A stretch of DNA of 64,000 bases, from positions 8,947 through 72,946 of the forward strand of contig CALXBW010000001.1 of NCBI GenBank assembly GCA_944386645.1. The letters are read 5' to 3'. The DNA is from an uncultured Clostridia bacterium (GTDB lineage: Bacteria; Bacillota; Clostridia; TANB77; CAG-508). Positions 16,501 to 53,837 of this stretch are shown here, piece after piece. The position numbers were made by a program, and so were the translations under genes. The notes beneath the pieces were generated by a model that searched no databases, was not told where the DNA came from, and saw nothing but the letters and a program-made list of their open reading frames with translations. How positions within the stretch are numbered: the stretch's first letter is position 1; every line of letters starts with the position of its first letter.

Positions 16501-18867
16501 AATGAAGTGGTTGTAAGAGATGAATTACCAAAATGGACACAATATGTTAAATCAAATAATAGCGTGAATACATCTATTACAGATGTTGAGCAATATCCAT
16601 ATGAGCCAACTGATGAGGATATGAAAAATTGGAATGTTATACAAAATGGAAATTATGAAAATGGAAGTGCTCCTATTGTAGAGTGGACAATACCATCAAT
16701 TGCACCTGGTGAAACTGTTACAAGAGAAATAGAAATAATGACATTAAATGAGCCAGATATATATAGATATTATAAAGATTATCCTGGATTTACAGTAGGA
16801 GAAGATGGAAAATATTATATAATTTCAAATAAAAAAGATAGTAATAATAATCTTACAGAGCAAAAAAGTGAAATTACAGATGTTCCAGAAATAGAACTAA
16901 AAAATATTGCAACAGTAACAGCCAGTAATTTTGCAGCTGAACTAAAAGCAGAGTCAAATTCAGTTACATTGAAACCATCAGATTTTACAGTTGATGAATC
17001 TTTAGGAGAAGATGTAAGTGAAGGAATTGAAGCAGGATCTGAATTGAATTTTTCAGTATCAATATTAAATCAATCAGATACAGAAAAGACAAATATATTA
17101 ATAGAAAAGGTATTACCAGAAGGTTTGAAATATGAAAGTTCATATATTTCAATAGTAAATTCTGAAACAAATGAAACAGAGACTATATATGGTACATATG
17201 ATAAAAATACTAGAAAAGTTACATTAAAATTAGATAAATTACTTGGAAATCAAGGATTTGGATTAATAATAAAAACAACAGCAGAAAATTTAAATAATGG
17301 GGAATATGAAAGAAATATTGAGACAAATACAACTGTAAGTGCAGATAATTATGAACCAATAGAAACAAATATAATAAGTGTAAAAATACAAAAACCACAA
17401 TTAGATATTCAGCAATATTGTAGCAATTCAAATGAATATTTACAAGAAGGAGAAGAATTAGAATATATACTTGTAGTAACAAATATAGGTAATGTAACAG
17501 CAAAGGGAATTAAGATTTCACAAAATGTGCCAGAAGGATTAAAGTTTATAAGTGCTAAATATTCGATGCTTGGAATAGAGAATTCTACTTATATGGATTC
17601 AGACAGAGAAATAAATATTAGTGGTGCTATGCAACCAGGAGAAGTTATACAGTTAACAGTAAAAGTAAAGGTAGAAGCTTTACCAGAAGATACAGATATA
17701 AATACAATTGCACAAATAAATGGAGATAATACAGAGTTTTATATTACTGAGGGAATAAATCAAGTTATAGAAAAATCACCAAATGCAGTAGATAATCCAG
17801 GAGATAACTCAGATGGAAATTCTGGGGAAAATAATCAAAGTGGAGATAGTAATATTTCAGGTTCTAAAATATCAGGTATTGCATGGGTTGATGCAAATGA
17901 GAATGGTAAAAGAGATAATGATGAACAATTACTAGAAAATATTCAGATTATAGCTATTAATGCAGATACTGGAGAAGCTGCAAAAGATACTAATGGAAAT
18001 AATATTCAAGGTACAACAGACAAAAATGGAAGTTATATATTATCTGGATTTTCGCAAGGTAATTATTTATTAGTATTTATCTATGATACAAATATATACA
18101 CAACTACGACATATAAAGCACAAGATGCAGGAGAAGTATTAAATTCAGATGTAACCGAAAGAACAGTAATACAAGAAGGAAAAGAAATATTAGCAGGTGT
18201 TACAGACACAATAATTTTAGATAAAAGTATTTCTAATATAGATATAGGATTAGTTTCAAAAGAAAAATTCGACTTAAAAATAGACAAGACTGTTACAAAA
18301 ATAACAGTACAAAATAATGAAGGAACTAAAGTACATAATTATAACAATTCTAAACTTGCTAAGGTTGATATAACAGGTAAACAGCTAAATAATTCAACAG
18401 TAATAATTGAGTATAAAATAGCTGTGACAAATGAAGGAAATATTGCAGGTTATGCAAAAAATATAGTTGATTATTTGCCAGAAGAATTAAGTTTTAATTC
18501 AGAATTAAATACAGAATGGTATTTAGGAAATGATGGATATGTATATACAACAAGCTTAAAAGATACATTAATAAATCCAGGTGAAACAAAGGAATTGACA
18601 TTAACATTAACAAAACAAATGACAGAAACAAATACAGGTATAGTAAATAACAATTCAGAGATAAAAGAGGATTATAATGAAAAAGGATTACAAGATAGAG
18701 ATTCAACACCTGGTAATAATGCACAAGGTGAAGATGATATAAGTAGTGCTGATGTTATCATAACTGTAAAAACAGGTGCTACTGTAATATATACACTTAT
18801 TGCATTTATTGCATTAGTAGTTTTAGCAATAGGGATTTATGTAATCTTAAGATTTATTAGAGAATAG
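13570..18867 (+). CDS. giant secreted surface protein, A-type (1765 aa): signal peptide, beta-rich head, multiple DUF11-like repeats (LKIEQ…YTI.V.N.G…A.NV.V.D.LP.GL), SdrD-B/CnaB-like domain, C-terminal …ITVKTGA + TM + basic tail
   Basis: RBS gaaaggagaaaaa. Repeat architecture read from the translation. Stop lies 11 nt before the RBS/ATG of the next gene. Confidence 0.8.
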   Translation: MKGKMFNRMRKISIKFLACVLIVLLTCADFLFCGNYLISYAADNKNDKLDKQTEATVHKNVKFDAYFETDTNKTHYNVSDVNDEDVAINIDIKVQEDGYLKNASIALKNENEKDGKNYTVVKIQDDAEMVQESSDNKISLRQINKDENIGLKLFISPKLDEKISLDKLDGTTKIILNAVYVDGKGNETTIEKDVDLSIGWTGEYEIEASQKLIKYIPLDLNGTKKVLVQIELDTRLKNEENKILLPIESTNIDIDVPKFNGVLPEKIYVAANSTKATNGLDGENVKFDKNNWSYDNTTGKLNINVKNSEDNNNRLVIGKDSDKYLITYTYPESAYKSINDSKLQLNQDVNVKMNVYKNEGTNTIEKNLNEKIELIKTVGKILSLEAIANEDHVGKGKMYANINSSEKTEETEYQTGWKINVGYTDNLDSIAMQDEKEEFQDENGNLYNITPYVKYKQTIIKREDFMQVLGEDGKIDFYNKDGEILASITTNSNVNTNGDYIVEYIADVNQIYIRTTEPVTEGNLTIINKKIITGYLPYTKESIDGFDKLISTNSVSQKEKDSENYLKVDEAKNEINLENTLTKAKLTLNKNTLSTIVNNENIEFRIELQNDKEDSDLYVNPVFDIELPQYIEDINVKEYEILYDDELVMDDIQKIDNNGKIVLRIKLKGIQTKFSKGSITNGTNVVLNTDIKVNILTPNIKDKINMYYYNENTNNYDNPVETSNGIAGLNVTDVEYAAPLGLVNISNLSNYEDSGKQLMSVNQGTMVDKIAVYQKARIAKMNLILVNNTGNVCNSINILGRIPFKGNKSVEKQEDLGTTIDTYIRSYISSNNQIPTDNIKIYYSENGEATRDLNNINNGWNTNINDYTKIKSYLIVIEGYDVKPGEGLNFSYDLEIPANISYNNNILTNYATYYVEKSSEADREEISEADVIGITTGKGPDLKIEQSVSGMSEDNTIGEYALLKFIVSVRNDGTETANEVVVRDELPKWTQYVKSNNSVNTSITDVEQYPYEPTDEDMKNWNVIQNGNYENGSAPIVEWTIPSIAPGETVTREIEIMTLNEPDIYRYYKDYPGFTVGEDGKYYIISNKKDSNNNLTEQKSEITDVPEIELKNIATVTASNFAAELKAESNSVTLKPSDFTVDESLGEDVSEGIEAGSELNFSVSILNQSDTEKTNILIEKVLPEGLKYESSYISIVNSETNETETIYGTYDKNTRKVTLKLDKLLGNQGFGLIIKTTAENLNNGEYERNIETNTTVSADNYEPIETNIISVKIQKPQLDIQQYCSNSNEYLQEGEELEYILVVTNIGNVTAKGIKISQNVPEGLKFISAKYSMLGIENSTYMDSDREINISGAMQPGEVIQLTVKVKVEALPEDTDINTIAQINGDNTEFYITEGINQVIEKSPNAVDNPGDNSDGNSGENNQSGDSNISGSKISGIAWVDANENGKRDNDEQLLENIQIIAINADTGEAAKDTNGNNIQGTTDKNGSYILSGFSQGNYLLVFIYDTNIYTTTTYKAQDAGEVLNSDVTERTVIQEGKEILAGVTDTIILDKSISNIDIGLVSKEKFDLKIDKTVTKITVQNNEGTKVHNYNNSKLAKVDITGKQLNNSTVIIEYKIAVTNEGNIAGYAKNIVDYLPEELSFNSELNTEWYLGNDGYVYTTSLKDTLINPGETKELTLTLTKQMTETNTGIVNNNSEIKEDYNEKGLQDRDSTPGNNAQGEDDISSADVIITVKTGATVIYTLIAFIALVVLAIGIYVILRFIRE

Positions 18868-53837: not shown

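Follow-up and report, generated by a model that had tools for sequence, protein, structure and literature searches.

What are the C-termini of the seven giant surface proteins encoded at this locus: sorting signals cut by a sortase, targets of some other enzyme, or plain membrane anchors? The locus lies in a 64 kb stretch of DNA from an uncultured Clostridia bacterium, analysed here as a whole and called the window. The reading that we prefer, at a probability of about one half and on the basis of sequence comparison, is that the tails are a variant of the LPXTG-like sorting signal, less strict in its N-terminal half, and that the enzyme cutting them would be a sortase from another part of the genome.

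Seven giant proteins with tripartite tails

The seven giant ORFs, all on the + strand, are arranged as three tandem pairs, each composed of an A-type and a B-type gene (A-B, C-D and F-G), plus one MucBP protein (E). Their translation reproduced every C-terminus quoted in the initial annotation, and the tripartite layout of cell-wall sorting signals, also described there, was seen in all seven: x-x-x-T-G leads, directly or through a short spacer, into 21–24 uncharged, hydrophobic residues, closed by a K/R-rich tail, which is 5–9 residues long in six giants and 31 in E.

Protein A (A-type, ORF 13570-18867) carries the C-terminal module described below at 18256-18777 (whole feature 18256-18864); its tail is made of TVKTG (18763-18777), a 24 aa transmembrane (TM) segment (18778-18849) and RFIRE (18850-18864). 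In protein B (B-type, ORF 18879-26414; module 25818-26318, feature 25818-26411) TPPTG (26304-26318) and the spacer ENR precede a 21 aa TM segment (26328-26390) and KRKVLNK. Protein C (A-type, ORF 26582-31873; module 31253-31774, feature 31253-31870) ends in SVATG (31760-31774), 23 aa of TM segment (31775-31843) and RRKASKYYN; protein D (B-type, ORF 31953-36617; module 36051-36524, feature 36051-36614) in TAPTG (36510-36524), the spacer GNK, 22 aa of TM segment (36534-36599) and KKLKM. Protein E (ORF 38341-43368), composed of four MucBP domains, a Cna_B domain and the module (42733-43203, feature 42733-43365), features TVATG (43189-43203), the spacer KE, a 21 aa TM segment (43210-43272) and the 31 aa basic tail. 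Finally, the tail of protein F (A-type, ORF 43964-49222; module 48602-49123, feature 48602-49219) reads TVSTG (49109-49123), 23 aa of TM segment (49124-49192) and RKKTARYYN, and that of protein G (B-type, ORF 49239-53837; module 53271-53738, feature 53271-53834) TPPTG (53724-53738), the spacer ENR, 23 aa of TM segment (53748-53816) and RRNKKE. Peptides spanning the motif are, for instance, DVIITVKTGATV and VIITPPTGENR.

C and F are 74% identical, D and G 73%. Six of the seven ORFs are intact; the exception is D, where a frameshift severs the signal peptide (ATG at 31886) and the ORF restarts at 31953. An exact-sequence look-up of C and D, aimed at the D frameshift in other assemblies, found neither on record. 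Hydrophobic N-terminal signal or anchor sequences were recognized by eye in all giants except D. By domain content (MucBP, Cna_B, SdrD_B, CLIPPER/DUF11, together with signal peptides) the giants are fibrillar adhesins of the kind anchored by sortases (PMC12617251), and these protein types are typical sortase substrates; both the domain content and the tripartite tail speak for sortase processing. When all six-frame ORFs of the window were searched with a strict regular expression for the tail, only giants were found, plus one chance match inside a multi-pass ZnuB permease; E escapes the expression because of its long tail.

A common C-terminal module

The initial annotation had placed the motif on three otherwise unrelated C-terminal domains and had argued from this for a dedicated enzyme. 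The domains turned out to be related. The last ~175 residues are homologous in all seven giants and make up a single CLIPPER/DUF11-like Ig domain; its final beta-strand leads directly into T-G and the membrane helix. BLASTP joins all three groups over the last 200–300 aa (E values from 1e-7 to 4e-14), and an HMM of the A-type module, deprived of the TM segment, matches E at 8.5e-36 and B, D and G at 3e-23 to 9e-28. Judged by these similarities, the seven proteins share by descent a C-terminal anchoring module of ~210 residues. The motif is therefore common by descent and not by convergence, the seven giants are not independent observations, and the argument from convergence for a dedicated enzyme falls.

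In E, residues 1510-1614 match Pfam DUF11/CLIPPER (PF01345), a CnaA-like isopeptide domain, with an E value of 7.5e-5 and a score of 23.5 bits, slightly short of the 24.6-bit cutoff; many homologue fragments of ~200 aa, which consist essentially of the module alone, have a precomputed PF01345 match (P0031, P0037, P0080, P0097). A putative isopeptide triad of Lys, catalytic Asp and Asn would be formed by K23 (first strand), D84 and N144 (penultimate strand), all invariant or nearly so in alignment A5, and N144 fully. In an AF2 model of the last 215 aa of A (pLDDT 92.4) the three residues sit on the expected strands, and the Ig module is probably locked by an intramolecular isopeptide bond.

In the same model the last strand is ISSADVIITVK, T185 is in coil and the helix starts at G186. 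Motif positions 1–3 are thus inside the predicted strand and the helix begins at the Gly, so that a sortase groove would have no free linker to bind, which counts against cleavage. The direct succession of strand, one coil residue and helix would rather suit a plain stop-transfer anchor, never cleaved, with the Ig module on the outer face of the membrane and the giant fibres crossing the wall from there; the Thr would act as helix N-cap and the Gly, or PP-x-G, as a hinge between strand and TM helix. We consider such a permanent anchor possible, if on balance unlikely. Structural matches to the module found by Foldseek agree with it in part: besides CARDB (2kl6, 3idu) and other E-set domains, they include integrin calf domains, which likewise sit directly against a TM helix. 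B, D and G also contain internal copies of the domain, which end in INIKIAEG, INIKLAEG and LKLYETDG, and these bear on both readings. A Gly follows the last strand in these copies too (AEG), as expected of a structural hinge; the Thr, on the other hand, is swapped in all of them, which tells against a permanent anchor. It is thus not needed for the fold, a point in favor of a sortase site.

Conservation of the motif in related proteins

Family members were sought in a genome collection by a scan based on the A-type alignment A3. Uncultured gut Clostridia carry the module widely, with 3619 cluster representatives at E <= 1e-10, all family members coming from uncultured organisms or metagenomes. 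Among 298 proteins with an A-type C-terminal module, 91 of which represent clusters at 50% identity, 295 keep T and all 298 keep G; S, D and N, which a helix N-cap should tolerate, never take the place of T. Strain variants of A and G differ in TM and tail residues, while the motif is unchanged. From these alignments, T-G is conserved far beyond chance and is under strong selection; this supports a sortase site and weighs against an uncleaved anchor.

The consensus is [S/T/G]-[V/I]-x-T-G for the A-type and [T/L]-P-P-T-G for the B-type. Across the family 23–26 residues separate the G from the first K/R (KK), a Gly is found five residues ahead of KK in 84 of 91 cases, and the C-terminal end LIKK[YF]V[LI] is common to both types. 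So tight a constraint on TM length and on the terminal LIKKYVL is unusual and would fit a permanent anchor as well; the short K/R tails of 5–9 residues are, conversely, typical of sorting signals. Other proteins composed of the same repeat (P0285, P0328) feature a classical PT-rich linker and, after it, M[EQ]KTGNP, a TM segment and RRK, again in favor of cleavage.

B-type proteins behave differently. A third homologue search, with the B-type module as query, gave only 17 matches. In the orthologues of B, D and G the residue before Gly is T in 40 cases, F in 38, Y in one and L in one. About half of them read LPPFG, present in 33 identical copies in different species, and ITPPYG and ILVPFG are also found, while a few (L016, L029, L061) have canonical LPPTG. 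The constancy of the motif in orthologues, to which the initial annotation had tied its proposal, is therefore confirmed for the A-type and breaks down for the Thr of the B-type in about half of the other species, which have Phe before the Gly. These T/F/Y switches, at what would be P1, occur between related B-type proteins; to our knowledge they are not accommodated by known sortase chemistry, and they count against cleavage. With PP-x-G retained, they fit an uncleaved hinge. The grading of the same variants into LPPTG points in the opposite direction, to a sortase signal. The LPPTG to LPPFG switch is a natural experiment, which could separate the cleaved from the uncleaved reading.

Comparison with known sorting signals

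The tails share with LPXTG substrates of housekeeping sortases (TIGR01167, PF00746) the signal peptide, a pentapeptide ending in T-G, a hydrophobic segment of ~20 residues, the K/R tail and the nature of the proteins, fibrillar adhesins. Taken in isolation, those of B and G score 18.6 and 19.0 bits with TIGR01167 (LPXTG_anchor) and pass its 15.9-bit cutoff, which supports a sortase signal and is at odds with a mere anchor. The tails of A, C, D, E and F fall below the cutoff, full-length scans of the giants gave no LPXTG_anchor match at E <= 0.01, and of 42 homologue tails only 9 match the LPXTG HMM, weakly. Differences from the canonical signal are the absence of Leu from the motif of all seven giants, the absence of Pro from the four A- and E-type tails (it is found in B, G and, at position 3 only, in D), the lack, in the AF2 model, of a linker between folded domain and motif, and, for the homologues, the failure of most tails to match the HMM and the Phe at P1 in half of the B-type orthologues. 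The missing Pro of the A-type tails is to be counted against a sortase.

Precedents exist for V or P as the second residue and for a TM segment that begins right after the G. In S. pyogenes the class B sortase Spy0129 uses pilus signals of the form (E/Q/V)(V/P)PTG (PMC3019223). As in the tails, T-G occupies positions 4–5 of these signals; the motif closes the final strand of an Ig domain that has an isopeptide bond, the TM segment comes directly after the Gly (KDFEVPTGVAM), and gene sets encode different subunits with different motifs. The pilin motif x-(V/P)-P-T-G fits B and G, and does not fit D (TAPTG) or A, C, E and F; in A-type tails position 3 is not Pro. Further differences are the size of the giants, which at 1500–2500 aa are not pilin-like, and the lack of an adjacent class B sortase or SipA. 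TIGR03065, which we take to be the model for S. pyogenes-type pilus sorting signals, matched no tail even at E <= 10.

SrtB of C. difficile, another clostridial enzyme, cuts (S/P)PXTG between T and G and leaves the V-containing peptide NVQTG uncut (PMC4155245). Its substrates resemble the tails in the x-P-x-T-G pattern and in the G followed by D/E and polar residues ahead of the TM segment, and TPPTG differs from (S/P)PXTG at position 1 only. All three B-type giants have T at that position, D reading TAPTG; in A-type tails the second residue is V or I, and this includes C, whose motif begins with S and continues with V. Both enzymes serve as precedents for a sortase acting on the tails. The claim that the pentapeptide is non-standard thus holds as far as LPXTG is concerned, but the motif is less exotic than first described: TPPTG is close to (S/P)PXTG, B and G pass TIGR01167, and orthologues with LPPTG exist.

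Listeria ActA is a surface protein held by an uncleaved, hydrophobic C-terminal tail. Anchors of this type are, like the giants, Sec-exported, with a single C-terminal TM helix and few basic residues inside; they are not known to have an invariant juxtamembrane motif, unlike the tails, where T-G is kept in 99–100% of A-type members.

PEP-CTERM, PGF-CTERM and GlyGly-CTERM domains are similar in that signature, TM segment and basic cluster are kept as a unit with fixed spacing, and PPFG superficially resembles the PGF of PGF-CTERM. CTERM models gave weak, sub-threshold matches to the TM part of the tails and none to the motif part; a PGF-CTERM or PEP-CTERM reading of PPFG was rejected, as neither an HMM match nor an enzyme gene was found. 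The NCBIfam GVDTG model was also discarded: it matches weakly the TM segment of G, not the motif, and at most one of the 42 homologue tails, and a literature search on the GVDTG sorting domain found nothing relevant. NCBIfam sorting-domain models match neither A-type nor LPPFG tails, and no relevant paper was found connecting TPPTG, LPPFG, SVKTG, TVKTG and related motifs with a sortase. The tail is described by no curated model or paper.

This absence may suggest a separate, uncatalogued sorting domain, with a dedicated enzyme, either non-classical or a sortase subfamily of new specificity, accepting both x-[VI]-x-T-G and L-P-P-F-G. The conservation of the whole ~35-residue tail, in the manner of PEP-CTERM-style domains, and that of LPPFG itself would agree with this proposal. 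It appears improbable: in every case the tail comes joined to this one Ig module, with no sign of the signal moving between unrelated proteins, and the search for an enzyme, reported below, weighs against it.

Search for a processing enzyme

The only sortase of the window, encoded at 61929-62529 (+ strand; Pfam Sortase, 5e-22) and named in the initial annotation as a candidate enzyme, is split. An N-terminal TM piece (61929-62069), with a GTG start and an AGGAGG ribosome binding site, is separated from the catalytic ORF (62095-62529), in another frame, by a +1 frameshift, due to an extra A in the A5 run at 62059-62063. The identical frameshift is present in L004-L007, four independent assemblies, and the resulting 144-aa ORF was seen on 95 contigs. 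Intact orthologues of 199 aa, reading NHNLENGDKST, are found in closely related strains at 96–97% identity. The nearest NCBIfam classes are C and D, both below cutoff, and the closest PDB chain is 4d70, presumably the class D sortase of C. perfringens, which prefers LPXTG.

Directly after the sortase lies an adhesin with a thioester domain (TED) and SpaA repeats (62531-64000, + strand, running off the window). The full TED adhesin is 772 aa long and ends in ILKELPKTGM, without TM segment or basic tail. The pair is found in four species, with sortase identity down to ~48%; the adhesin is likely the substrate of its neighbor, which points to canonical LPXTG specificity. Housekeeping genes separate the sortase from the giants, no sortase is encoded between 13570 and 53837, and in L094/L095 the sortase is found in a different neighborhood. 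In favor of a role of this gene are its being the only sortase of the window, the intact versions in related strains and the fact that small genomes often hold few sortases. That the small sortase processes the seven giants seems to us very unlikely. A broken local sortase, together with six intact giant ORFs, would be compatible with anchors needing no cleavage.

The survey was extended to 79 related loci of 20 kb (1.39 Mb in total). Searched with phmmer and with profile HMMs built from two families of sortases, only one of them (L049) has a sortase within 10 kb, without enrichment, a result unfavorable to the sortase reading. In that genome (L049/L087) a sortase, not of class B, is located between giant genes, as would be expected of a processing enzyme; its relatives, 47–51% identical in a metagenome scan, follow rsmA in a housekeeping context with no giants nearby, so that the association looks incidental. 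Clustering of neighbor ORFs over the 79 loci produced no conserved candidate enzyme: the conserved neighbors are mreC, mreD, a PBP, minC, spoIIE and two small proteins. Likewise, in the window no exosortase-like, rhomboid-like or multi-pass candidate ORF was found, no class B sortase or SipA-like chaperone adjoins the giants, and a Pfam scan of the remaining small ORFs gave nothing relevant. There is no credible enzyme for the tails within the window. The lack of a linked enzyme agrees with an uncleaved anchor and disagrees with a dedicated sorting system; sortases do exist in this clade, a point in favor of the preferred reading.

Proposed mechanism and implications

If the tails are indeed a relaxed LPXTG-like signal, the giants would be exported by Sec and held in the membrane, as precursors, by the helix and the basic tail. 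A membrane sortase would then cut between Thr and Gly, and would join the Thr to peptidoglycan or, possibly, to a partner protein; cleavage, acceptor and enzyme are what we infer from the features described.

A more elaborate scheme, which we hold to be rather doubtful, would combine a distinct, uncatalogued sorting domain ("TG/FG-CTERM"), recognized by an enzyme of its own with new specificity, with A/B pairs forming two-component fibres. Its pattern would be [S/T/G]-[V/I]-x-T-G or [T/L]-P-P-[T/F]-G, followed by ~23 hydrophobic residues with a fixed Gly and by K-K-[Y/F]-V-[L/I]. The A-type would be joined through its invariant Thr to the wall or to its B-type partner. The B-type would serve as a base, anchored to the wall (TPPTG/LPPTG) or permanently to the membrane (LPPFG); major and basal pilins offer the analogy.

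The module marks several thousand giant surface proteins of uncultured, small-genome gut Clostridia, whose hosts are humans, chickens, rabbits, mice and ruminants, and current annotation models miss this anchor. If uncleaved, it would caution against taking every tripartite "xxxTG-TM-basic" tail for a sorting signal, since such a layout can be a structural junction between domain and membrane. If T-G is a sortase site, it would define a new, Pro-less recognition class and would point to a sortase of unusual specificity, possibly useful for protein ligation, and the main surface adhesins of these organisms would be anchored to the cell wall.

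Organization of the giant genes

Seven very large ORFs, all on the + strand, span positions 13570-53837 of the window, which has a G+C content of about 26%: A (13570-18867, 1765 aa), B (18879-26414, 2511 aa), C (26582-31873, 1763 aa), D (31953-36617, 1554 aa), E (38341-43368, 1675 aa), F (43964-49222, 1752 aa) and G (49239-53837, 1532 aa). DUF11/CLIPPER repeats and one SdrD_B domain are found in A, C and F, SdrD_B is the only domain detected in B, D and G, and E features four MucBP domains, one Cna_B and a weak DUF11 match. By all-against-all BLASTP, A, C and F are paralogues (C/F 74% identical), as are B, D and G (D/G 73% identical): the genes therefore form three tandem pairs, A-type then B-type (A-B, C-D, F-G), plus E. 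The arrangement is that of a duplicated two-gene cassette, with 12-80 nt between partners. The same order is present in nearly all of 79 related loci, which suggests that A-type and B-type proteins work together.

The C-termini quoted in the initial annotation were correct on translation for all seven proteins. The pentapeptides, all on the + strand, are TVKTG in A (18763-18777), TPPTG in B (26304-26318), SVATG in C (31760-31774), TAPTG in D (36510-36524), TVATG in E (43189-43203), TVSTG in F (49109-49123) and TPPTG in G (53724-53738). Downstream of each come 0-3 polar residues, 21-24 uncharged residues and, at the extreme end, a K/R tail of 5-9 residues (31 in E). No other ORF of the window carries such a tail, except for one chance match within ZnuB.

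Some features of single genes may be added. The signal peptide of D is lost through a frameshift (31886-31953): translation from the ATG at 31886, which has a good RBS, gives MKKKIVVIWAILII... before meeting stops, and the long ORF restarts at 31953 in another frame; D may be a pseudogene or not exported. RNase HII (10400-11030) is apparently split into two overlapping ORFs (137 and 80 aa), being single (210 aa) in a syntenic locus, which brings the apparent frameshifts of the window to three, with those of D and of the small sortase described below. Residues 444-479 of G (50568-50675) form a striking linker of aromatic, Pro and Asp residues, WPGYPSYPNFPCYPDWPDWPDYPDWPDWPDEPEEPD. An N-terminal FC(S/K)(Q/E)HGQ motif is common to D and G (positions 32118 and 49467) and resembles the Cys of thioester domains (TED); no Pfam TED match was found for this region.

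A common C-terminal module

The three groups of C-terminal domains had been regarded as unrelated, and the shared motif, on that ground, as pointing to a dedicated enzyme. The last 200-300 residues of all three groups, instead, align with one another by BLASTP (E-values: A-E 4e-14, D-F 1e-11, A-D 6e-8, B-C 1.5e-7), and T and G are among the 15 columns that stay invariant when the seven tails are aligned with MAFFT. An HMM of the A-type modules, with the TM helix removed, matches E at 8.5e-36 and also the C-terminal modules of D (8.5e-28), G (6.4e-26) and B (2.7e-23). The motif is therefore common to all seven proteins through descent of one module, composed of domain, T-G, TM helix and tail, and the argument from convergence falls. 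A separate sorting domain, served by a dedicated enzyme, is considered improbable.

Many homologue fragments of about 200 aa, essentially the module alone, carry a precomputed match to PF01345 (DUF11), since renamed CLIPPER, a CnaA-like isopeptide domain (PMC12617251). The last 215 residues of A, modeled by AlphaFold2 from 55 aligned sequences, are predicted to fold into an Ig-like sandwich (pLDDT 92.4); Foldseek matches include CARDB, other E-set domains and integrin calf domains. In the model, the final strand comprises residues 174-184 (ISSADVIITVK), T185 is the sole coil residue after it, and a helix runs from G186 to the end. K23, D84 and N144 of the module are invariant or nearly so; from the model we infer that they may be positioned on the strands expected of a CnaA-type isopeptide triad.

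Conservation of the motif

A profile search of 5.8 billion proteins gave 214 matches; the best 120 all end in x-x-x-T-G, TM helix and basic tail, with motifs such as SVKTG (23), TVKTG (13), GVKTG (13) and SIRTG (8). In an alignment of 42 tails, no column is invariant apart from T and G. An exhaustive HMMER search, covering 1.84 billion cluster representatives, reported 6646 matches at E<=1e-3, of which 3619 reach E<=1e-10 and 1492 reach E<=1e-30. Where the module is located at the C-terminus (298 proteins), G is always kept and T precedes it in 295, the exceptions being two A and one L; V or I is found at position -3, and S, T or G at position -4. In the representatives of 50%-identity clusters, 23-26 residues separate G from the first K/R, a Gly lies five residues ahead of KK in 84 of 91, and the consensus end is G-[IV]-x-L-I-K-K-[YF]-V-[LI]. 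Strain-level variants of A and G differ in TM helix and tail, with the motif unchanged. The family is made up entirely of proteins from uncultured organisms.

Internal paralogous copies of the domain end in ...EDDSDSAPTINIKIAEG (G), ...INIKLAEG (D) and ...LLNLKLYETDG (B): the fold, therefore, does not demand Thr, while Gly may be required by it. Huge proteins built from the same repeat (P0285, P0328) close with M(E/Q)KTGNP, a TM helix and RRK after a PT-rich linker: a further non-LPXTG tail, of the x-x-K-T-G type, with a classical wall-spanning linker.

B-type tails were analyzed in the 79 loci obtained from a genome-collection scan, all from MAGs of uncultured gut Clostridia, including Clostridium sp. 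CAG:508, the circular 1.57 Mb MAG OZ007016.1 and samples from chicken, rabbit, mouse, deer and humans. In these loci the motif is only partly maintained: every A-type tail retains T-G, while about half of the B-type ones carry Phe before Gly. Thr is found in 40 B-type tails (26 TPPTG, 3 LPPTG and other x-P-x-TG forms), Phe in 38 (33 LPPFG, 4 LTPFG, 1 VPPFG); IPPYG and TPPLG occur once each. By species, the B-type partner ends in (V/I)(K/I)ILPPFG, or in LTPFG, IPPYG, VPPFG or TPPLG, rather than TPPTG, in about half of the cases; this LPXTG-like motif, with Phe in the place of the Thr expected at the cut, is strongly conserved. In a neighbour-joining tree of the module, the Thr and Phe forms fall into separate clades, with some five changes between them; LPPTG, MPPTG and IAPTG lie inside the LPPFG group and, in an additional search, ITPPYG and ILVPFG adjoin ITPPTG relatives. 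The B-type tail is thus a relative of LPXTG whose Thr at P1, the residue before the presumed T|G cut, is dispensable in many species. To our knowledge, no sortase accepts Phe at P1.

These variants would be accounted for if the tails were stop-transfer anchors that are never cleaved, T-G or PP-x-G being the junction of strand and helix. Such an anchor would also explain the zero-length linker and the tight constraint on TM helix and tail. It is the main rival and a real possibility, yet a less probable one than a sorting signal, for which the Thr of A-type tails, never replaced by S, D or N and missing from the internal copies, argues.

Comparison with known sorting signals

Scanned alone, the tails of B and G exceed the TIGR01167 LPXTG_anchor cutoff (18.6 and 19.0 bits, against 15.9), which the other five do not reach; 9 of the 42 homologue tails match the model, weakly, and LPPFG tails match no sorting-domain model. 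Sortases with comparable targets have been described. The class B Spy0129 of S. pyogenes recognises (E/Q/V)(V/P)PTG and cuts T|G, with the TM helix directly after Gly (PMC3019223). SrtB of C. difficile cuts SPKTG, PPKTG, SPSTG and SPQTG at T|G, but leaves LPETG, NPQTN and NVQTG uncut (PMC4155245). A literature search found no TVKTG-like or LPPFG motif tied to a sortase.

Candidate enzymes

The small sortase had been proposed as a possible enzyme for the giants. It begins at a GTG (61929) behind a strong RBS and encodes a TM helix at its N-terminus, in a frame which stops at 62067-62069; the catalytic domain lies in another frame (62095-62529; Pfam Sortase, 5e-22). Intact 199-aa orthologues (96-97%, 89% and 81% identity) read through as ...NHNLENGDKST..., so the run 62059-62063 of the window is one A too long. 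The insertion (GAAAAC to GAAAAAC) separates the TM helix from the catalytic domain, and the shifted frame reads AAA CGG TGA, a rare Arg codon and a stop. Four independent metagenome assemblies share exactly this frameshift; the 144-aa ORF is found on 95 contigs, the intact version (96-97% identical) on only 3. Pseudogene, phase variation and +1 recoding are all possible. The sequence is nearest to classes C and D, under the subfamily cutoffs; the best PDB relative is 4d70.

The gene directly 3' of the sortase, both in the lineage of the window and in three further species (sortase about 89%, 65% and 48% identical), encodes a TED/SpaA adhesin; in the window it extends past the end (62531-64000). 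Full genes of the adhesin, in four other contigs (L004 10437-12755, L094 10603-12918, L096 6567-8084, L102 8543-9811), encode 422-772 aa and end, in all four species, in ...(E/K)LPKTGM* (as in KELPKTGM); no hydrophobic segment, TM helix or basic tail follows in any frame. The adhesin is probably a sortase substrate with a one-residue 'tail', a kind of which we know no earlier description. Having a putative canonical-motif substrate of its own, and being frameshifted, the small sortase is a poor candidate, and its action on the giants very improbable.

Window positions 1-7169 are 92-99% identical to contigs L094 (5765-9648) and L095, where the sortase-TED pair directly follows LemA; in the window, 55 kb separate the two, and this interval contains all seven giants along with housekeeping genes, a sign of a probable large rearrangement between close relatives. 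The N-terminus of a Cys-rich 223-aa protein (61002-61673, - strand) is CarboxypepD_reg-like, and KPECKPEHKDDCK(Q/K)DY is repeated in tandem; the protein differs in length among assemblies (287 aa in L004, 207 in L007, 56 in L006).

Profile HMMs of two sortase families found one sortase around the 79 loci (1.39 Mb), located between giant genes in L049; its relatives follow rsmA in a housekeeping context, with no giants nearby. Next to the clusters, mreC, mreD, a PBP, minC, spoIIE and two small proteins are conserved, with no obvious processing enzyme among them.

A proposed variant sorting signal

The reading we prefer, at roughly even odds (about 0.5), is that the tails are a variant sortase-type sorting signal, on which a sortase with its gene outside the window would act. 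Besides the behavior of Thr, it is favored by the grading of B-type motifs into canonical LPPTG, by the adhesin domain content and by the published x-x-x-TG precedents containing V/P. Non-canonical sortase-like C-terminal anchors are a known kind; this variant is absent from NCBIfam and the searchable literature. Its defining features are a Pro-less [STG][VI]xTG, joined without linker to a CLIPPER-like domain, a paired protein with [TL]PP[TF]G, and abundance among gut Clostridia.
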